From the NCBI GenBank assembly GCA_963698805.1, contig CAVOSN010000005.1, positions 155,553 through 219,552 of the forward strand: a stretch of 64,000 bases of DNA. Reading direction: 5' to 3'. The position numbers and the translations under genes are program-made. Origin of the DNA: an uncultured Acidobacteriota bacterium. GTDB taxonomy: Bacteria > Acidobacteriota > Terriglobia > Terriglobales > Acidobacteriaceae. The notes beneath the pieces were generated by a model. It saw only the letters and a program-made list of their open reading frames with translations. It did not search any database and had not been told where the DNA came from. Positions 10,297 to 20,932 of this stretch are shown one piece after another. Position 1 is the first letter of the stretch. Each line of letters opens with the position of its first letter.

Positions 10297-10444
10297 CCCG
10301 TATTCACCGGGGTGCAAGACCTTTCGTGTGCGGCAGGGAATGGGAATATCCCATAGAATGAGCAAGTAACCCCCTGACCGGAAGTTTGAAACAGCAGCAA
10401 CGGACAGGCAGTCGTCCGACTTGAGTGAGAGAGAAGTTAACCGT

Positions 10445-11509
10445 ATGTCATCCAACGGATTCCATTCCAGCGCCGGGCGGTTCCACAATCTTCGGTCGCT
10501 GTTCAGCATTTTCTCCAGCGACCTGGCCATCGACCTCGGCACCGCGAACACACTGGTGTACGCGCGCGGCAAGGGCATCGTCGTCAACGAGCCTTCCATT
10601 GTGGCGATCAATAAGAACACTGCCGAAGTGGAAGCCGTCGGAAAAGAAGCGAAGGAGATGCTCGGCCGCACGCCGGGCAACATCGTCGCCATCAAGCCGA
10701 TGAAGGACGGCGTGATCGCCGATTTCAAGGTCACGGAAAAGATGTTGAACTACTTCATCCAGAAGGCGCACAACCGCAAGATGCTAGTGCATCCACGCAT
10801 CGTGATCGGCGTGCCTTCGGAAATTACGCAGGTGGAAAAGCGCGCGGTTATGGACTCGGCCTATCGCGCGAAGGCGAGCGAAGTCTACCTGGTCGAACAG
10901 GCAATGGTCGCCGCGATCGGCGCGGGATTGCCGATCACCGAACCCAGCGGCAATATGGTCGTCGATATCGGCGGCGGCACCACCGACATCGCAGTCATTT
11001 CTTTGAGCGGCATCGTCTACTCGCGTTCCGTGCGCATGGCTGGCAACCAGATGGACGAAGCCATCATGAATTATCTGAAACGGAAATATAACTTGCTGAT
11101 CGGCGAGCGTACTGCTGAGCAGATCAAGATTGAGATTGGCAGCGCCTATCCACTCGACAAGCCGCTGACCATGGAAATCAAGGGCCGCAACCTGATTGAA
11201 GGCGTGCCCAAGACCATCACGGTCGACGACAGCGAAATCCGTGAAGCACTGAGCGAGTGCGTTTCGACCATCATGAACGCGGTGCGCGTAGCGCTGGAGC
11301 GTACGCCTCCCGAACTTTCTGCCGACATCAGCGACCGCGGCATTGTTCTGACGGGCGGAGGCGCCTTGTTGAAGAATCTTGATAAGCGCATCCGCGAAGA
11401 AACGGGCTTGCCCGTCTCGATTGCCGATGACCCGCTGTGCAGCGTGGTGCTAGGCACCGGCAAAATGCTCAGCGACTTCAAACTGTTGCGCAAGATTTCG
11501 ATTGAGTAG
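10445..11509 (+). CDS. mreB: Rod shape-determining actin homologue MreB
   Basis: [14 protein letters not shown] and [10 protein letters not shown] motifs. ATG 10445 is preceded by purine-rich GAGAGAGAAG. A longer TTG ORF from 10421 is possible. Confidence 0.95.
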
Positions 11510-11515
11510 AGCGCT

Positions 11516-11641
11516 GAGCTACGAGCTGCGAGCTGCGAGCAGGCTAGCGCGATATTCCTTCCTACGAATGACGCTCGGGGTTGGATCACTTCCGTTATCA
11601 GGTTCGCTGATGACTAGCGACTGACGACTGACGACTAGTAA
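11516..11641. repeat. Two tandem-word tracts in the mreB-mreC spacer (GAGCTRC x3; CGACTGA/CGACTAG x3)
   Basis: GAGCTACGAGCTGCGAGCTGCGAGC at 11516-11540. GATGACTAGCGACTGACGACTGACGACTAGTAA at 11609-11641 has TGA/TAG/TAA in all three forward frames and ends 14 nt before the mreC ATG. Confidence 0.55.
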
Positions 11642-11655
11642 AGAGAACTGCAGTT

Positions 11656-12879
11656 ATGGAATCCGTCCTCGGCCGTTATAAGAACCTGATCGTCCTGGCC
11701 TGTGTGCTGGTGGCTCAAGTGCTGGGTCTGGCCGTCCAGGTCAAGCGCACCACCGATACGGAATCCTCCCGCCTGATCCGCATCTGGGCCGTCAATACGG
11801 TCACGCCGTTTGAGAAGGTCCTGCACTGGGTCCACTCCGGCAGCGGCAACCTGTGGCACAACTACTTTTACCTGCGCGGCGTGCGCGCCGAGAACCGCGA
11901 ACTGAAAGCGGAAATCGAGCGCTTGCGTCTGGACCAGGTGCGCTTGAACGAAGACGCGGCCCAGGCACGCCGCCTGCAAGCTTTGCTGGCCTTTAAGGAA
12001 CAGTTTATTTCGCAGACGCTGCCCGCCCAGGTGATCGGGTCGGGAGGCAGTGAGCAATCCCGCATCGTCTACATCGACAAAGGTCAACATGACGGGCTGA
12101 AGCCCGACATGGCGGTCATCACGGTGGATGGGATCGTCGGCAAAGTTCTGAAGGTGTTTGGCTCCACATCGCAAGTCCTGCTCATTGATGACCAGTCGAG
12201 CGGCGTGGGTGCGATTCTCGAGAAGAGCCGGCTGCAGGGAATTTTGCGCGGTACTTCCGCCGGTGAAGTCGTTCTCGAACGCATCATGACCGACAATGCC
12301 GTGCAGCCCGGCGAAGAAGTTCGCACCAGCGGCGGCGACCGTATCTTTCCCAAGGGACTACCGGTGGGGACGGTGACGAAGGTTGGAAATGGCGCGGACC
12401 TGTTTTTGAGCATCCGGGTTCGTCCGGCTGCGAACCTCAGCAAGCTGGAAGAAGTGCTGGTCGTAACCAAGCTGGTGGAGCAGGAGCCGACGCAACTGCA
12501 GACCGGGCCGGTGCGCGCCGCGGATATTCTGGCGCAGCGGCTGCCTTCAGTTCCGGATAAGCCTCCGGCCGACGTGGAAAAACCCAAGCAGGACGCGCCC
12601 GCGAAAGAGGCAGCCAATCCCGCGGGACCCGCTCCGGGCAAGACCAGCCCTCCGCCTCGCGCTGACGTAACGCCGAACCCGCGTTCAGATTCGATTACAC
12701 CAATCTCTCCGAAGAACACAGGGGCGGCGCAGAGTGTTCTGCAGCCGGCAACCGCGCATGGACCTGCTCCGGCGCCCGTCAAAGTGGCCGATCCAATACA
12801 GCCGGCGACGCCCAAGAGCAAGCCCGCCGTACCACCGGCGCGCGCGACCGAGCCTCCCGCTCAGAACGGACCGCAGTAA
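11656..12879 (+). CDS. mreC: Rod shape-determining protein MreC with long Pro/Ala-rich C-terminal tail
   Basis: 407-aa ORF between mreB and mreD. N-terminal TM and coiled-coil (ENRELKAEIERLRL), beta-barrel core, and a low-complexity tail of about 130 aa. Confidence 0.9.
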   Translation: MESVLGRYKNLIVLACVLVAQVLGLAVQVKRTTDTESSRLIRIWAVNTVTPFEKVLHWVHSGSGNLWHNYFYLRGVRAENRELKAEIERLRLDQVRLNEDAAQARRLQALLAFKEQFISQTLPAQVIGSGGSEQSRIVYIDKGQHDGLKPDMAVITVDGIVGKVLKVFGSTSQVLLIDDQSSGVGAILEKSRLQGILRGTSAGEVVLERIMTDNAVQPGEEVRTSGGDRIFPKGLPVGTVTKVGNGADLFLSIRVRPAANLSKLEEVLVVTKLVEQEPTQLQTGPVRAADILAQRLPSVPDKPPADVEKPKQDAPAKEAANPAGPAPGKTSPPPRADVTPNPRSDSITPISPKNTGAAQSVLQPATAHGPAPAPVKVADPIQPATPKSKPAVPPARATEPPAQNGPQ

Positions 12880-13397
12880 TGCCGATCACTTACACATCTG
12901 GGGAGCAGGTTGAGGTTTACCGGTTTAACTGGCTGATCACGCTGGGCGTGCCGGCAACTGCGCTTTTCCTGCAGGCCTGGCTGCCGCACCAGTTTCCGTC
13001 ATTCGCCCTGCTGGATCTGCCGCTGCTTGTGACGATCTTTTTCGCGATCTCGCGGCGCAATCCGATTTCCGGATTGCTGACGGGCGGCGCCATTGGCGTC
13101 TTTCAGGACGCTCTCACCGGCCTGCCCATCGGACTCAACGGAATCGCCAAGACGCTGGTCGGCTACGCGGCATCGTCGCTGGGCGTGAAGATCGACGTCG
13201 AGAATGCGGGAGCGCGCCTGCTGGTGACGCTCGTCTTCTGTGTCGCGCACAAGATCATCTACTTTATGGTGGCCCGCGGCATGGTGAACCTGGCCATGCA
13301 ATGGAACTGGCCGCACGAGTTGTGGTCCGCGTTTGTGAATGCGATCGTAGGCGTATTCATGTTCTACGCGCTAGACCGTTTCAAGCTCAGAACGTAA
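12879..13397 (+). CDS. mreD: Rod shape-determining protein MreD
   Basis: 172-aa polytopic membrane ORF. Its start overlaps the mreC stop (TAATG). Assignment rests on conserved position in mreBCD. Confidence 0.8.
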   Translation: MPITYTSGEQVEVYRFNWLITLGVPATALFLQAWLPHQFPSFALLDLPLLVTIFFAISRRNPISGLLTGGAIGVFQDALTGLPIGLNGIAKTLVGYAASSLGVKIDVENAGARLLVTLVFCVAHKIIYFMVARGMVNLAMQWNWPHELWSAFVNAIVGVFMFYALDRFKLRT

Positions 13398-13544
13398 CGA
13401 ACAGTTCTCGGTTCTCAGTGGGAACCTTGAAGATGCTGAACTTAAGTGACACACGACAGAGTCAATGAGCCACGAATGCGGCGTTAGAATCGTGTATTCG
13501 ATGAAACTGAGAACTGGGAACTGAGAACCGAGAACTGATGTTCG
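13398..13544 (+). promoter_or_regulatory. Long-range RNA helix joining the mreD stop region to the mrdA start codon
   Basis: 13402-13419 (CAGTTCTCGGTTCTCAGT) is the exact reverse complement of 13520-13537. CGAA (13398-13401) can pair with TTCG (13541-13544), leaving the ATG (13538-13540) as a bulge. Confidence 0.4.
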
Positions 13545-15496
13545 GTCGTGACGAAAAAGTATCGTCGATCCGCCTCACGGCGGTGCAGTACATCATCCTC
13601 ATCATCTTCATGATCCTCGCCTACGGGCTGTGGCGTCTGCAGGTGATGCAGAGCGATTTCTACGCGCAGCTGGCCGAGAAAAATAGAATCCGCAACGTCC
13701 CCATCCTCGCCCCCCGCGGCAAGATCCTCGACCGTCAGGGCCGCGTCATCGTCGATAACTACCCGTCGTTCTCCGCGCTTCTGTTGCGCGATTCGACGCG
13801 CGACCTGAACGCCGACGCCGACGTCATCGCGCAAGGCCTCCATCTCGAGCCTAAGGAAGTTCGCGACCGCATCCGCAAGTTCACCTCGATGCCGCAGTAC
13901 CAGCCGATCTTCCTGAAAGACGACATCACGCCCGACGAACTGGCCTTCATCGAGTCGCACAAGAACGAACTGCCGGAACTCGACACCATCATGGCCCACC
14001 GTCGCCTGTACCCGCGCAACGGATTCATGGCGCACCTGGTCGGCTACGTCGGTGAAGTCACCGAGACGATGCTGAACCAGCCCCAGTTCGAGTTCTATAA
14101 CCCGGGCGACGTGGTCGGCGTCTCCGGCGTCGAGAAGCAGTACAACCAGATCCTCATGGGACAGAACGGATCCCGGCGCGCTCTGGTCGACAGCCGGGGC
14201 AAGGAAATGGGCCGGCTCGACGAAACGCCCGCTGTTCCCGGCAAGCAGCTCAAGCTGACCATCGACATCGATCTGCAGATTGCCGCCGAAGAGGCTCTGG
14301 CGGGGAAGAACGGTGCAATGGTGGCGATGGATCCCCGCAACGGCGAGATTCTCGCCATGGTCAGCCGCCCTACATTCGACCCGAACGACTTCGCCGTGCG
14401 CGTGTCGCGCGACGAGTGGAACAAGCTGGTCAATGATCCCGACAAGCCGCTGTTGAATAAAGCCATTCAGGCACAACTCGCTCCAGGCTCCACATTCAAG
14501 ATCATTATGTCGGTCGCGGGATGGCAGGAAAACATCGCGCAGACGCTCAACGTGCATTGCACCGGCGGCGCGACGTTCTACGGTCGTCGGTTCGGCTGCT
14601 GGGTCAAGGGTGGGCACGGCCCAGTCGACTTCACCAAGGCCATCTATCAATCCTGCGACGTCTTCTTCTATACGCTCGCAGAAAAACTTGGTATCGATCG
14701 CATCGCCAAGTACGCCACCGCGCTCGGCCTCGGTCAGAAAACGGGAATCGACTTGCCGAATGAAGTCAGCGGCGTGATGCCCTCGGAAGAATGGAAAATC
14801 CGCAACTTCAAGCAGAAATGGTTCGCGGGTGAAACGATCTCGGTCGGTATCGGGCAAGGCGCCATCGCCACCACCCCAGTGCAACTGATCCGAGCGATCT
14901 CCGCCATCTCCATGGATGGCCGCATGGTTATTCCGCACGTGGTGAATCCCACGGAACTACCGCCCGGCGTCGTCGATGTCCAGCGCTACACGGAAGTCAA
15001 AACTGTTCCGATCGACAGCACGGGATACACCACCATCACCGACGCGATGGCGCGTGTTTTGTTACCCGAGGGAACGGCGCCCTCGGCGCACATCCCGGGC
15101 ATCGACATAGCCGGCAAGACCGGTTCTGCCCAGATCGTCTCGCTCGCGCTGCGCGCGAAACACGAGAACGACGATAACTTTGCGCAGAACGGCTGGTTCG
15201 TCGGATTCACTCCGCGCCGCAATCCGGAAATTATCGTCTGCGTGTTGTTCGAAGGCGGCGAGCACGGAAAACTGGCCGCGCGTCTCGCGACCCAGGTGAT
15301 CAAAGCGTACGTCGACAAGCAAAACCGTCAGCCCACGAAGATGGCGAAAGACGGCGCAAAGGTCGACGTGGGCGCCCTGTGGACCGCTCCCGACGAGGAC
15401 GGAAAAGAAAACAACGGCATCGGCGCAGGCCACTTTGTGGTCGAAGCCTCAAAGAAGAAGCCGCCGCTCGCCGCGGCAGCACCGGGCTTGCAATGA
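13538..15496 (+). CDS. mrdA: Penicillin-binding protein 2 (elongasome transpeptidase)
   Basis: 652-aa ORF with an N-terminal TM, STFK (SxxK) and KTGSA (KTG) motifs. Lies between mreD and rodA. Confidence 0.95.
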   Translation: MFGRDEKVSSIRLTAVQYIILIIFMILAYGLWRLQVMQSDFYAQLAEKNRIRNVPILAPRGKILDRQGRVIVDNYPSFSALLLRDSTRDLNADADVIAQGLHLEPKEVRDRIRKFTSMPQYQPIFLKDDITPDELAFIESHKNELPELDTIMAHRRLYPRNGFMAHLVGYVGEVTETMLNQPQFEFYNPGDVVGVSGVEKQYNQILMGQNGSRRALVDSRGKEMGRLDETPAVPGKQLKLTIDIDLQIAAEEALAGKNGAMVAMDPRNGEILAMVSRPTFDPNDFAVRVSRDEWNKLVNDPDKPLLNKAIQAQLAPGSTFKIIMSVAGWQENIAQTLNVHCTGGATFYGRRFGCWVKGGHGPVDFTKAIYQSCDVFFYTLAEKLGIDRIAKYATALGLGQKTGIDLPNEVSGVMPSEEWKIRNFKQKWFAGETISVGIGQGAIATTPVQLIRAISAISMDGRMVIPHVVNPTELPPGVVDVQRYTEVKTVPIDSTGYTTITDAMARVLLPEGTAPSAHIPGIDIAGKTGSAQIVSLALRAKHENDDNFAQNGWFVGFTPRRNPEIIVCVLFEGGEHGKLAARLATQVIKAYVDKQNRQPTKMAKDGAKVDVGALWTAPDEDGKENNGIGAGHFVVEASKKKPPLAAAAPGLQ

Positions 15497-15596
15497 ATTG
15501 GCTGATAGCTGGTAGCTCATGGCTGGTAGCGAGCAAGAGAGCTTTTGCCACCGGCTACCAGCTACCAGCGACGAGCCAGCCGACGACTAAAGACTA
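15497..15596. repeat. GCTGGTAGC / GCTACCAGC word hairpin plus GACGACTA tract in the mrdA-rodA spacer
   Basis: GCTGGTAGC at 15508 and 15522; its complement GCTACCAGC at 15554 and 15561. GCCGACGACTAAAGACTA abuts the rodA ATG. Confidence 0.45.
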
Positions 15597-16679
15597 ATGT
15601 CCCGCTACGTCTCATACCGCGATTTCGACTGGCTGCTGATCATCTTCGTTCTGATGATCTGCGCCATCGGTGTCTTTGAAATCCAGAGCGCCACCGTGCA
15701 CACAAAGTTCGCCGGTGCCCACATCAAGCAGCTCTACTGGATCGTCGGCGGCTTGATCGGCATGTTCCTGGTCAGCCTGCTCAACTACCAGGCGCTGCTC
15801 GAGCAGGTGCACTGGATGTACATCGGCGCCATCGCCTCGCTGATGTCGGTCATGATCTTCGGCCAGAAATATCTAGGCGCGCGCCGCTGGATCAAAATGC
15901 CCGGTGGCCAGCACTTCCAGCCCTCGGAATGGGTCAAGCTGATCCTGATTCTCGCCGTCGCCAAGTATTTCGCCGACATGCACCACCGCGACCTCTCCTG
16001 GTCGGATTTCATCAAGGCGGGAGCCATCGTGGGGATTCCCATGCTGATGGTGCTTGCGCAGCCCGATCTCGGTACAGCGCTGACGTACATGCCGATCGCG
16101 CTCATGGGACTTTTCCTCGGAGGTGTGCGCCTGAAGCAGGCGCTGATCGTCTTGATCATCGCGGGCTCCGTCATGCCCCTGGCCTGGCACAAGCTGAAGC
16201 CATATCAGAAAGACCGCCTCATCAGCTTTATGGAGCCGGAAGCCGACAAGCAGGGTTCCGGATACCAGGTCATTCAATCCAAAATCGCCGTGGGTTCGGG
16301 TGGCATTTGGGGAGGCACAGGTACTCAGACGCATCTTTCCTACCTGCCCGTGCCCCAAACCGACTTCATTTTCGCCGCTTTTTCGGAGGAACACGGCTTC
16401 GTAGGAGCTTTGGGGGTGCTCCTGCTATACTTCATAGTGCTGATGCGGTTGACGCAGAACGCTCAGACGGCGCCCGACCGCGCTGGAACGTTCGTGGTAA
16501 TGGGTGTGGTGGCTGTGCTTAGCTTTCACATCCTGGTCAACGTCGGCATGGTGGTTGGCTTTATGCCGGTCACCGGAATACCCTTACCGCTGATGAGTTA
16601 TGGCGGGTCTTCTGTCCTGTTTATGTTTTTAGCGCTGGGCATGGTCATGAATGTCCGCATGCGCCGTTTCGTGAACTGA
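15597..16679 (+). CDS. rodA: SEDS-family peptidoglycan polymerase RodA
   Basis: 360-aa polytopic ORF with FtsW/RodA/SpoVE-like motifs (QPSEWVKL, TDFIFAAFSEEHGF, GIPLPLMSYGGSS). Confidence 0.95.
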   Translation: MSRYVSYRDFDWLLIIFVLMICAIGVFEIQSATVHTKFAGAHIKQLYWIVGGLIGMFLVSLLNYQALLEQVHWMYIGAIASLMSVMIFGQKYLGARRWIKMPGGQHFQPSEWVKLILILAVAKYFADMHHRDLSWSDFIKAGAIVGIPMLMVLAQPDLGTALTYMPIALMGLFLGGVRLKQALIVLIIAGSVMPLAWHKLKPYQKDRLISFMEPEADKQGSGYQVIQSKIAVGSGGIWGGTGTQTHLSYLPVPQTDFIFAAFSEEHGFVGALGVLLLYFIVLMRLTQNAQTAPDRAGTFVVMGVVAVLSFHILVNVGMVVGFMPVTGIPLPLMSYGGSSVLFMFLALGMVMNVRMRRFVN

Positions 16680-17064
16680 CGCAGGAAGGGCCCCGCAGCC
16701 AGATTGCAGTACCCGCGCGGAGGCGCGGCTAGAACAAGATTACGATCGCCCTCGCGTAAAGAGGGCACTCACCGGCCAGAAGAAGTGAAGGCCGGGCAGG
16801 ATTGCAGCCCGCGCTGCCGGGCGGGAAACGGCCCCCTCCCCACTGAGGAGAGAGCGGTCACAACCCCGGGACGGCGCAACATTGCGATACGTGCATAAGA
16901 TTCCTAAGCTTTCGCTGCGGATTCGCTTCTGGAGTGCTTTCCAGAAGGCTCGTCCACATGAGTGTGGACTCGTACCCATCGCGACGTTCGATCCTCCCCT
17001 GCTTGCCCTCGCTTCTGCCCCGGTGACCCTGCGGCCCTGAAAGTCCGCAGACCCCGGAGTAAGA

Positions 17065-19949
17065 ATGAACAAAGAACTATTCGTCACTTCAACGCCCCAC
17101 GAAACCAAAGTGGGCCTGGTTGAGGATGACCAGCTTGCCGAAATCTACCTCGAGCGCGAAAACGAATACACCCTGGCCGGCTCCATTTACAAAGGACGCG
17201 TGACCCGCGTACTTCCCGGCATGCAGTCCGCTTTCGTGGACATCGGCCTGGAACGCGACGCCTTCCTCTACGTTTCCGATTTCATGGAACTCGAGGAACA
17301 GGACGACGACTTGACCGATGTCGTTCCCACCAACCGTCCGCCGCTGCAGGAGAGCCGGCCGCAGCAGGAGTCGCGGCCGCAGCCACAACGCTCCGAAGTT
17401 TCGTCCTTGCCCCCATCCGAGAATGCTTCATACGTGATCGAATCGGAGCCGTTCGAAGAGGAGCAAGCCAGCGCTGCCTCGTCCGTGCCCGAACCCGGCA
17501 ACAGCGACGCACAGCCCCGCGAGAGCTATTCTCGCGACAGCCAATCGCGTGACAGCCAGTCGCGCGACCGCGGAGGCTTCCGTGGCCGCCGCCGTCGTCG
17601 CGGTCGCCGCTTCGAAGAAGAACGTACCGACCGCCCTGAACGTAGCGACCGTCCTGATCGTGCGGCCAGCTCCGACCGTGGCGAGCGCTCGAGTCGTTCC
17701 GACTCCGGCGACGGCTACTCGGCCAGCTCGACGCCGCCTCGCACGCGCTCCCGAGGGGCTGACGATTACGGACCGCCTCCCGGATATCAGCCGATCATCC
17801 TGCCGGGCGAGTCGATTTCGAAGTATCGCGGCCGGGCTAGCCAGCCCGTCGCTGCCAACGCGACCAAGGAAACGGCTGCCGCTCCGCAAGGAGCATCCGG
17901 CGTTCCCGCGGGCTTTCCGGACGATGAGCCGCTGTTTGCGACCGGTCTCACCGAGCCGCTGCACGAACAGCATGGTGACGAGCATCGCGATGAGGCCGTT
18001 CACCAGGAGTGGGAGCGCGAGCACGCCCTGCAGGATCGCATGAATCTGACTGCGGCCTTCGCCAGCGAGCCGGTGGTCGAGCATGACGAAGTCGTCGAGG
18101 AAGTGATCGGCAGAGGCCGTGAGGCTGAGTCTGAGCCCGAAGCATTCGCCGCTGCTGCGTCCGTGGCTGAGCCGCCGACTTCCGTAGCACCCTATGACAG
18201 CCCTGCGGGCTCGGTCGAGGAGCAGGTCATCGACGAGGAAGAAGCCGACATTACGCACTACGTCGAAGAGCTGGAAGAAGACTCCGTTTTCGACGAGATG
18301 GAAGAAGAGACCAGCGCCGCCGCCGACTACCAGGCGCCGCGCAGCCTCGAAATCGCCGCTACCGGCGAGCCGCCTCTGCATGCAGCCAAGGAAAGCTTAG
18401 AAGCTCCGCACATCGGCGACGAAGGGTCGATCGCGGATGTGGAGGGTTTTGCTGCAGAAGGCGAGACGGAGAGCGAAGAGACGAAGAAGAGACTGAAGAA
18501 GACACAGAAGAAGCAGAAATCGAAGATGCGCAGGCCGAGGCCGAAGCATTGCTCGCTGCGGAGGCACTAGGCACCGGCACCGTCGATGCGCGGGCCGAAG
18601 TTCGCGCTCCCGCCGGGACCGCAGCCTACACGCAGCGCGCTCAGCGTCCAGCTTTCGATCGTCGTCGCGGACGCCGTGGTGGACGCCGCTTTCGCCAGGG
18701 AGGCGGTGGTGGCGGCAGCAACTCGCCTCGCCGCAACAATGCCCCGGTACCTCTCATCAGCGATCTCCTGAAAGAAGGTCAGGAAGTTCTGATCCAGATC
18801 GCGAAAGAACCGATCGGCAAGAAGGGCGCCCGCATTACCAGCCATATCGCTCTGCCTGGACGCTTCCTGGTCTACATGCCGACCGTGAACCACACCGGCG
18901 TGTCGCGGAAGATTTCTTCGGACGAAGAGCGCCAGCGCCTGAAGCGCATCATCATCAGCGAACGCGAAAACGGCCAGGGTGGATTCATCGTCCGCACGGC
19001 CGCGGCCGGAGCCTCGGAAGAAGATCTCCGTGCTGACATCCGCTTCCTGAAGAATCTGTGGCACGAGATCAAGACGCGCTCGGAAGAAGCCAAGGCTCCG
19101 GCGCTCATCTATCACGACCTCAATGTCGTAGAGCGGGTGCTGCGCGACCAGGTCACGTCTGACTTCTCAGCCATCTGGGTCGATACCGAGACGGAATACG
19201 AGCGCATCCTGCGCTTTGCCAACCGCTTCCAGCCCGCGCTGGTCCGGCGCGTGAAGCTCTATACCAAGGAAACGCCGCTGTTTGAGCAATTTGGATTGAA
19301 AGAGGAAATCGACAAAGCCCTCAAGTCGAAAGTCTGGCTGAAGAGCGGCGGCTACATCGTCATCAATCAGACCGAAGCGCTGGTCGCGATCGACATCAAC
19401 ACCGGCAAGTACGTTGGCAAAACGGCACGCCTCGAAGACACGATCGTCAAGACCAACGTCGATGCCATCAAAGAGATCGTGCGCCAGATTCGCCTGCGCG
19501 ATTTGGGCGGCATCATCGTGATCGACTTCATCGATATGGATGAGCGCCGCAACCGCCAGAAAGTCATGCAGGCTCTCGAAGAAGAATTGCGCAACGATCG
19601 CGCGCCCTCAAAAGTCCTTCAGTTCAACGATTTCGGACTGGTGGCCATTACCCGCAAGCGCGTGAAGCAATCGCTCGAACGCACCATCGGATCGCCGTGC
19701 CCGCACTGCGAGTCCACCGGCTTCATCAAGTCGGTGACCACGGTGTGCAACGAGATCTACGTCGAAATGCGCAAGATGGCGAAGCACATCGAACGTCAGG
19801 ACATCATGCTGCGCGTCAACCCCGAAGTCGGCAAGGCCCTGAAAGCGCAGAACGGCCGCTGGTTGACCGAGATGGAAGAGTTGACCAAGCGCACCATCAT
19901 CGTGAAGTCCGACGGCACGCTGCACGAGGAGCAATTCGACATCAACTAA
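17065..19949 (+). CDS. RNase E/G-family ribonuclease with a giant insertion in the S1 domain; reading frame broken by an apparent -1 shift near 18480
   Basis: ORF 17065-18570 carries the first half of S1 (IYKGRVTRVLPGMQSAFVDIGLERDAFLYVSDF). ORF 18549-19949 carries the second half plus the catalytic core (LKEGQEVLIQIAKEPIGKKGARITS, LVAIDINTG, IIVIDFIDM, CPHCESTG Zn-link). The second frame is open upstream to about 18480. Confidence 0.85.
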
Positions 19950-19954
19950 CCGTG

Positions 19955-19980
19955 TGAGGCGGACACTCCTGTCCGCCTCA
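19955..19980 (+). terminator. Perfect 11-bp stem-loop right after the RNase E/G stop
   Basis: TGAGGCGGACA-ctcc-TGTCCGCCTCA. No U-tract follows. Confidence 0.4.
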
Positions 19981-20024
19981 GCTCTAACATTACGATGGAG
20001 CGACGGGCGTCCCCGCCCGTCGGC

Positions 20025-20050
20025 CCGGGCGAAAGCCCGGCTTTTCTGTT
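20025..20050 (+). terminator. Rho-independent terminator-like hairpin
   Basis: CCGGGC-GAAA-GCCCGG followed by CTTTTCTGTT. Confidence 0.55.
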
Positions 20051-20233
20051 TACCAGGCCTTCGCTGGCGTAGCGCCGGCGTCCGCCGGCAGTCCGGAGGG
20101 CGTCTCGCCCTCCACTCCGTTGCCCCGCACATAGCATTACGCCCGTAACTTGAGCATCGCTATTCACACTCACAGAATGGAACGAGGGCGCAGGTCGGTT
20201 CGCGCCTACCGTTCCGGCGACGAGGGGCGTAAC

Positions 20234-20932
20234 ATGCGTCGAGCTTCTCTTTTTCTACTGTTGTTTGTGGTCTCACTAACACCTTCGTGGGCGCAGGAAA
20301 AAGCTGCACCTTCCGCGAATCCGCAGAATTCCGCCAAAGCGACTGTCTTCGTGTACCGCTACAAACAGTTTGTCGGAGCGGCACTTGCTCCTTCGGTCTT
20401 TTGCGACGATGTGCAGCTAGCGCGCATGGAAAACGGCCGCTACTTTACGACCACCGTCGAGCCAGGCAAGCACATCTTCCGCTCGAACGATGAGCAGTCG
20501 GGGATCGTGCTGCTGGCCGCGGCGGGCCAGCAATATTTCATCCGCGTCGACATCGCTGCTGGGTTCATGAAAGGTCACGGACGGCTGCAGTTAATGGACG
20601 TTCAGCAGGGCACGTACGAACTCACTTCCGACAAACTGAAGCCGCTGGATGCAGGCAAGGTTATCGCCAAAGACAAAGTCTCCGTCGAGGTTGCCCACCC
20701 GCAGCCTCCGACGCAAGCTGTGCAGTCCGCGCCGGCTGCAGCTCCCGTCGCGAGCACACTCGCGCCGACCACCATAGTGCAGCAAACGCCCGCACCCGCA
20801 GCGCCGCCCGCGCCGCAGAACGTCTCGATAACCACGAACGCTGTCAGCCCCACCAGCATGACGAGCGATTCGACGTCGCTGGGGGACGCAGCCCGCCTGG
20901 CGCGGCAGAAGAAGCAGGCCCAGCAGAAGTAG
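20234..20932 (+). CDS. Secreted DUF2846-like protein with Pro/Ala/Gln-rich tail
   Basis: ATG 20234 gives MRRASLFLLLFVVSLTPSWAQ (signal). The core ATVFVYRYKQFVGAALAPSVFCDDVQLARMENGRYF resembles DUF2846, from recollection. Confidence 0.7.
   Translation: MRRASLFLLLFVVSLTPSWAQEKAAPSANPQNSAKATVFVYRYKQFVGAALAPSVFCDDVQLARMENGRYFTTTVEPGKHIFRSNDEQSGIVLLAAAGQQYFIRVDIAAGFMKGHGRLQLMDVQQGTYELTSDKLKPLDAGKVIAKDKVSVEVAHPQPPTQAVQSAPAAAPVASTLAPTTIVQQTPAPAAPPAPQNVSITTNAVSPTSMTSDSTSLGDAARLARQKKQAQQK

Follow-up and report, generated by a model that had tools for sequence, protein, structure and literature searches.

A giant charge-blocked insert in the S1 loop of a tail-less RNase E/G-family protein from an uncultured member of the Terriglobia, a candidate internal scaffold

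A stretch of 64,000 nucleotides (nt) from an uncultured acidobacterium of the class Terriglobia (family Acidobacteriaceae; assembly GCA_963698805.1, contig CAVOSN010000005.1, positions 155,553 to 219,552), which is referred to as the window throughout, carries a single gene of the RNase E/G family at window positions 17065-19949 on the plus strand, the strand on which the parts of the gene given below are located. The gene starts with an ATG at 17065, preceded by GGAG 6 nt upstream, and its first 73 amino acids (aa; 17065..17283) comprise the RNase H-like subdomain together with the first half of the S1 oligonucleotide/oligosaccharide-binding (OB) fold, which ends in DAFLYVSDF. A charge-blocked insert that is predicted to be disordered then occupies 17284..18752, and the second half of S1, the 5' sensor, the DNase I-like domain, the Zn-link and the thioredoxin-like small domain follow up to the stop codon (18753..19949), as assigned by PF10150, PF20833, TIGR00757 and the alignment to E. 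coli. The first-pass annotation of this DNA had described an S1 domain split by an insertion of about 490 aa with limits at 17283 and 18753, and these limits have turned out to be exact, the last nt of '...DAFLYVSDF' being 17283 and 'LISDLLKEG...' beginning at 18753 in frame 0. Because the gene runs in two frames in the assembly (open reading frame (ORF) 1 at 17065-18570, frame 1, 501 aa; frame 0 open at 18198-19949), the 1469 nt of the insert correspond to 489 codons + 2 nt.

The split of the S1 fold has been confirmed by profile alignment and by mapping onto structures of the PDB. The N-terminal segment is recovered as S1, and alignments of the two halves have been obtained with the RNase G profile, with E. 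coli RNase E and with its S1 domain solved in isolation (1SLJ). Residues 5-72 of the window protein align to E. coli RNase E 4-72, and residues 553-885 of P0001, an intact orthologue, align to 88-420. On 1SLJ, window aa 39-72 are placed on chain residues 10-43 and P0001 aa 553-589 on 59-95, and a loop of 15 E. coli residues is thereby swapped for about 480-490 residues, while on the Caulobacter RNase E structure 4OXP the window protein maps to chain 23-92 and then to 167-288. The S1 equivalents of F57, F67 and K112 are retained in the alignment to E. coli S1. Likewise, the 5'-sensor Arg-Thr is found in GFIVRTAA (18981-19004), and both catalytic Asp (equivalents of E. coli D303 and D346, in AIDIN and IVIDFIDM) and the Zn-link CPHCESTG, which is of the CPxCxGxG type, lie within 19386-19721; all three elements align to E. 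coli RNase E. According to Pfam, the thioredoxin-like small domain forms the end of the protein, so that the C-terminal scaffold whose absence had been pointed out earlier is indeed lacking.

The family assignment is based on PF10150 (RNase_E_G), which scores 349 bits against a cut-off of 25.5, and on TIGR00757, which reaches 437 bits against 326 on the frame-0 part. The NCBIfam RNase G profile NF008689 (489 positions) is covered end to end, with ORF1 aa 1-79 on positions 1-79 and aa 87-488 of the frame-0 product (from 18480) on positions 87-486, although the two pieces with 86 + 412 bits (sum ~498) stay below the equivalog cut-off of 594 bits. The RNase E equivalogs have not been reached either, with 260-286 bits compared to cut-offs of 908 (enterobacterial, NF008074), 1400 (mycobacterial, NF052588) and 900 (cyanobacterial, NF052586), and none of the lineage-typical non-catalytic extensions of RNase E, N- or C-terminal, is present on the window protein. 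With regard to an intein or another domain in the insert, no Pfam family has been found within the 501-aa ORF1. The genome is 100% complete and contains only this one RNase E/G gene; RNase Y has not been found in it (best match 20 bits), and a single RNase J is encoded at C12:111187-112821 (553 bits), so that the main RNA-decay nucleases found in this genome are one RNase E/G and RNase J. The gene is therefore the sole rne/rng-family endoribonuclease gene of its genome, with an RNase G-like core length and an RNase G-like position after mreBCD-mrdA-rodA, and as the only family member its product must also cover the tasks of RNase E.

The composition of the insert is dominated by charged and small residues, with 10% R, only 0.6% K, 15% E and 7% D next to abundant G, P, S and A, a charged fraction of 0.33 and 16% hydrophobic residues. 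These values support the likeness to the scaffold and Arg-rich (AR) segments of RNase E that had been proposed in the first-pass annotation, and the Arg-rich and acidic runs named there are all present. An acidic lead, which starts at 17284, is followed by SRDSQ repeats (17530-17568) that precede the Arg-rich block AR1 (GGFRGRRRRRGRRF, 17572..17613), and, after a mixed R/S/D stretch, by the short linear motif YGPPPGYQPIILPGESISKYRG (17767..17832) with the core LPGES(L/I)(S/A)KY, hereafter the LPGES peptide. A long acidic region then spans about 17900-18570 and encloses a conserved acidic block (VEEQVIDEEEAD...FDEMEEE, 18214..18309) with a net charge of -12 per 25 aa as well as two predicted helices, namely the long helix A (17980..18063), which is conserved among close relatives only, and helix B (18480..18566, frame 0), which is acidic, continues with AEIEDAQAEAEALLAAEA and is invariant among close relatives. 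The insert closes with the conserved Arg-rich block AR2 (FDRRRGRRGGRRFRQ) and a Gly run (18654..18716), which abut the second S1 half.

For comparison at the DNA level we have used L001 (97.8% identical over the gene) and L002 (90%), the two best of the closest database proteins, which are single chains of 920-963 aa from metagenome-assembled genomes (MAGs) of Terriglobales. Between L001 and L002 the ratio of non-synonymous to synonymous substitution rates (dN/dS, omega) amounts to 0.128 in the insert and to <=0.005 in the cores. The insert thus encodes protein and is selected, less strongly than the cores, and the values of 0.12-0.13 obtained for it denote purifying selection. The SRDSQ tract of the window holds one 15-nt unit more than that of L001 (gap at 17536-17550), so that the copy number of the repeat differs in frame between genomes with 98% identity over the gene.

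On the scale of the whole class, the spacer is poorly conserved; the parts that are kept are AR1, AR2, the acidic block and, most of all, the LPGES peptide, with the block order of acidic, AR1, motif, acidic and AR2 preserved throughout. In an alignment of 44 Terriglobia sequences, the Arg columns of AR1 are conserved to >=90%, and the only invariant columns of the insert are L, P, G, E and Y of the LPGE...Y motif. Among 90 species-level Terriglobia proteins, the peptide has been found in 89, with a total of 116 instances (one copy in 63 proteins, two in 25 and three in 1) and the consensus (Y)xP[IFM][LVI]LPGES[LI][SA][KR][YH], or PxxLPGES(L/I)(S/A)KY in short form. Outside the RNase E/G copy, no second LPGES peptide has been found in a six-frame translation of the organism's own genome, and this confinement gives no hint of a shared partner. 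The inserts of 172-219 aa in three RNase E/G genes from other acidobacterial classes hold the LPGES-like words ILPETLP, ILPDRL and LILPDRF; judged by their wording, these and the Terriglobia peptide may share an ancestral motif.

These data bear directly on the notion that the insert is, for the most part, low-complexity sequence which has accumulated by replication slippage in a permissive surface loop, is tolerated there and serves a spacing role only. A length range of 309-873 aa within one class, short tandem units (SRDSQ, RPERSD and GAA tracts), in-frame indels between near-identical relatives and the fact that most insert columns are <40% conserved are what such an expansion would be expected to leave behind. 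The dN/dS of 0.13, the invariance of L, P, G, E and Y and the near-invariance of the Arg columns over 44-90 species, the duplication or triplication of the motif in some lineages and the class-wide retention of block order speak against it, and we regard a purely tolerated expansion as quite unlikely, even though neutral expansion is partly compatible with a functional reading of the insert.

To determine how far this architecture extends, TIGR00757 has been searched in 300 genomes of Acidobacteriota and in 70 genera of the organism's family. The genes were then extracted, and insert length was measured from the equivalent of P0001 residue 72 to that of residue 553. In every extracted gene the site of the insert is constant, directly after an AFLYVSDF-type beta3 strand and before xIxDLLKEGQE. 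The insert measures 406-873 aa in 20 genera of the organism's own family and 322-497 aa in four genomes of three other Terriglobia families, while other acidobacterial classes have 130-241 aa in eight genomes and 15-46 aa in four. A scan of named genomes has yielded 66 intact genes, all from Terriglobia, with inserts of 309-853 aa (median about 508) and none with a C-terminal tail. This set includes MAGs labelled Candidatus Korobacter versatilis, Edaphobacter, Terracidiphilus, Silvibacterium, Acidisarcina and Candidatus Sulfotelmatobacter, as well as the isolate Tunturiibacter empetritectus M8UP27, the finished chromosome of which encodes a protein of 1274 aa with an insert of 803. Overall, 309-873 aa stand at the insert site in 90 Terriglobia species, compared to 130-241 aa or only 15-46 aa in the other classes surveyed, and the giant insert is thus a class-wide trait of Terriglobia and not particular to this genome. 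In one acidobacterium of another class (G001), two RNase E/G paralogues have been observed, of which L036 (G001:C33) combines a 15-aa S1 loop with a C-terminal tail of ~120 aa that contains three poly-Arg runs, and L037 (G001:C17) is RNase G-like with a 46-aa loop. Compared with Terriglobia, these paralogues illustrate that both placements of Arg-rich segments exist within the phylum.

The fold of the intact protein has been approached with AlphaFold2 on P0001 in two runs, one with 30 close sequences and one with 44 Terriglobia sequences, which have given a mean predicted local distance difference test score (pLDDT) of 42 and 53, respectively, the core being acceptable in the latter. The insert remains below a pLDDT of 50 except for three islands, namely the peptide region (54-58) and the helices at aa 302-326 and 467-491 (71-90); helix A, which corresponds to orthologue aa 302-326, lies at 71-90 in both runs, and helix B at about 78-80. 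Since the alignments are shallow, the low values elsewhere in the insert are weak evidence for disorder. The S1 parts themselves reach a pLDDT of only 30-45, and the statement that the S1 fold is intact is for this reason based on sequence alignment.

The transition between the two frames has been traced by DNA alignment to 11 extra nt at 18475..18485, at the start of helix B, which are lacking in L001 and L002 and shift the reading from frame 1 to frame 0. They repeat the neighbouring 12-nt GAA-rich unit with imperfections and lie in an acidic E/T stretch, the length of which varies in frame among 105 relatives and after which the invariant AEIEDAQAEAEAL follows. All other indels among the window, L001 and L002 are multiples of 3, and the catalytic core downstream of the break has an omega of 0.005 versus L002. 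We consider it likely that the two-ORF split reflects an error of the consensus, superimposed on a repeat variant that is itself in frame, and that a single protein of about 960 aa is made by the organism. This reading is drawn from the presence of a single gene copy, the low omega of the core and several further frame breaks. In the same assembly, carB (contig C4:97019-100247, outside the window) is likewise spread over two frames by one extra nt near C4:98380, within the conserved YFEPL/TLEDV, which suggests single-base consensus errors in the assembly. In L001, mrdA, which encodes penicillin-binding protein 2 (PBP2), is called as 546 + 120 aa following a 1-nt difference at L001:~1010-1053 (equivalent to window 15164) in the same 9 kb, whereas it is intact with 652 aa in the window and in L002. 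Moreover, the two halves of the RNase E/G gene lie in different frames in seven of 80 species-representative loci, and all seven belong to a single MAG project, as assigned by record title ('MFD...bin', contigs named contig_N), in which they account for 7/27 loci versus 0/46 among the other loci spanning both halves (Fisher p = 5e-4). Their breaks occur at differing positions, and three of the genes contain several. Two further genomes of the family have out-of-frame halves, and in at least three the gene is split over contigs inside the insert. The low-complexity insert thus seems to be especially prone to assembly errors and frame breaks in long, highly contiguous MAGs, and split rne/rng calls in such genomes should therefore not be read as pseudogenes.

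Two observations weigh against an artefact, as rpoB, rpoC and dnaE of the same assembly are intact and a difference of 11 nt is atypical of a single-base consensus error. On the alternative view the break is real, and the gene would be either a recent pseudogene or the source of two polypeptides, an N-terminal piece of 501 aa and a C-terminal piece starting from TTG 18549, which has GAGG 8 nt upstream. The 11 nt are, after all, present in the assembly, a GAA tract with natural length variation is prone to slippage, and RNase J is available and could carry RNA decay. Nevertheless, we hold a real break to be unlikely, given that it would affect the sole RNase E/G gene with an unrelaxed catalytic core, that carB of the same assembly is broken within an invariant motif and that frame breaks of the insert are confined to the MAGs of one project at scattered positions; as to two polypeptides, neither is likely to function with only half of an S1 domain. 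The overlapping ORFs in frames 1 and 0 could also be taken as two independent genes or as programmed -1 frameshifting, to which we assign hardly any probability, since the relatives have one ORF of 920-1344 aa, with a single ORF in 66 named relatives, 24 further genomes and >100 database proteins. Programmed -1 frameshifting has been rejected, as no slippery heptamer of the X XXY YYZ type has been seen by eye within 18470-18570 and the break positions are scattered across MAGs.

Taking the sole family member without a tail as the starting point, the most economical reading is that the S1 loop represents the non-catalytic region of the enzyme. We therefore favor, with a probability of roughly 0.55, the interpretation that the insert may act as an internal scaffold for RNA binding and partner docking, presented by an expanded beta3-beta4 loop of S1 in a tail-less sole enzyme. 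The loop would then take over the role of the C-terminal tail of E. coli-type RNase E. AR1 and AR2 would hold RNA beside the channel formed by S1 and the 5' sensor, the acidic blocks could either gate this RNA channel or pair with Arg blocks, both inside a tetramer and across tetramers, the LPGES peptide would dock a partner, multivalently where it is duplicated, and the blocky opposite charges might drive self-association or condensates. Arg-rich blocks and short invariant peptides set in a disordered spacer that evolves fast make up the same pattern as in proteobacterial RNase E scaffolds, and it is from the composition and these conserved short motifs that a degradosome-scaffold function has been inferred. 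More tentatively, and with somewhat less than even odds, the scaffold may have moved wholly into the beta3-beta4 loop of S1, with the LPGES peptide as the docking site of a degradosome partner and the Arg and acidic blocks driving condensates akin to bacterial ribonucleoprotein bodies (BR-bodies) at the RNA entry.

Several points count against a scaffold. The likeness to degradosome scaffolds is confined to composition and to the pattern of conservation, the insert is poorly conserved over most of its extent and varies almost threefold in length, as would be expected for a tolerated spacer, and the split S1 has not been modelled confidently. A different role in which no protein is recruited has also to be considered, as the insert could chiefly be a cis gate on the enzyme's own RNA channel, with acidic segments that mimic RNA and Arg blocks that raise the local affinity, along the lines suggested for the S1 insert of Caulobacter. 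It occupies the same site as the insert of Caulobacter RNase E, in which a helix with acidic side chains sits in the RNA path (PMC4245959), and deletion of the insert in Arabidopsis is cited in the same paper as having lowered activity. The positions of the conserved acidic stretch directly after beta3 and of AR2 directly before beta4 would fit such a gate as well. Gating would leave unexplained both the sharply conserved, non-charged peptide in the middle of the loop, in one to three copies, and the need for about 480 aa, and as the chief function we consider it somewhat unlikely; it is compatible with the scaffold reading, since the two are not exclusive.

With regard to the genomic context, mreB, mreC, mreD, mrdA (PBP2) and rodA are located upstream on the same strand (10421..16679), as identified by Pfam matches and the gene tables of L001 and L002. 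A spacer of 385 nt (16680-17064) separates rodA from the start of the RNase E/G gene, and an Rfam scan of 16000-20500 with E up to 1 has returned two sub-threshold chance matches, none of them in this leader. Directly downstream lies the gene (20150-20932) for a DUF2846 protein whose N-terminus is signal-like and whose tail is rich in Ala and Pro; this protein is also present in L001 and absent at the corresponding position of L002.

RNase E scaffolds have become a model for disordered regions that organise bacterial RNA decay, and nearly all of the data stem from the C-terminal tail of Proteobacteria. Terriglobia belong to the most abundant soil bacteria, and the S1 insert is the only candidate scaffold in this lineage, which makes the role of S1 inserts testable there; cultured strains exist for this purpose, and the sharply conserved LPGES peptide offers an immediate handle for pull-downs. 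In a literature search, which did not cover subscription journals, no paper has been found that connects acidobacterial taxa with RNase E or with S1 inserts. A survey from 2011 gave only a 511-aa RNase E/G for Fibrobacteres/Acidobacteria and predicted no degradosome (PMC3071783).

Among known systems, E. coli RNase G (CafA/Rng) shares with the window protein the end-to-end profile coverage, the lack of a C-terminal tail and the position after mre genes, to which rng is linked in E. coli as well; the window enzyme differs from it by its giant insert, its score below the equivalog cut-off and its status as sole family member. With the tail of E. coli-type RNase E, which carries the motifs for RhlB, enolase and PNPase (PMC4435900, PMC11964227), the insert has in common Arg-rich blocks and conserved islands within a disordered spacer, and both favor Arg over Lys and contain acidic blocks. 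The E. coli-type scaffold is C-terminal, whereas the window insert resides inside the S1 loop, and neither homology of the insert to described scaffold motifs has been found nor a membrane-targeting amphipathic helix been recognised in it.

The closest counterparts are found at the insertion site itself, and here the first-pass annotation, which has held as to the split, the size, the composition and the missing tail, had overlooked that the site is a known one and the insert a class-wide trait. S1 inserts at this position have been described for alpha-proteobacteria, plants and Chlorobium as charged, disordered segments of 50-150 aa, the role of which is not known (PMC4245959, PMC3045602, PMC2486463). 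In plant chloroplasts and Chlorobium tepidum, RNase E/G has its S1-region insert in a conserved catalytic domain, as here (PMC2486463); the plant enzymes differ by large N-terminal extensions and by much shorter inserts, which are unrelated in sequence. The insert of Caulobacter crescentus RNase E (4OXP; Hardwick 2011, PMC3045602; Voss 2014, PMC4245959) shares the S1 site with the window insert, and a fragment of its catalytic domain that includes the insert (residues 1-274) binds RhlB (PMC4245959). Both the alpha-proteobacterial inserts, Caulobacter's included, and the window insert are highly charged, predicted to be disordered and poorly conserved. However, the former comprise 50-150 aa beside a long C-terminal scaffold, and the latter about 490 aa, with up to 873 aa in relatives, and no scaffold elsewhere. 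Unlike Caulobacter's, it further contains a conserved LPGES peptide of its own and two Arg-rich blocks. The Terriglobia insert thus departs from the known S1 inserts in its 3-6-fold size, in the lack of any other non-catalytic region, in the RNase G-like, mre-linked core that carries it and in its class-specific invariant peptide.

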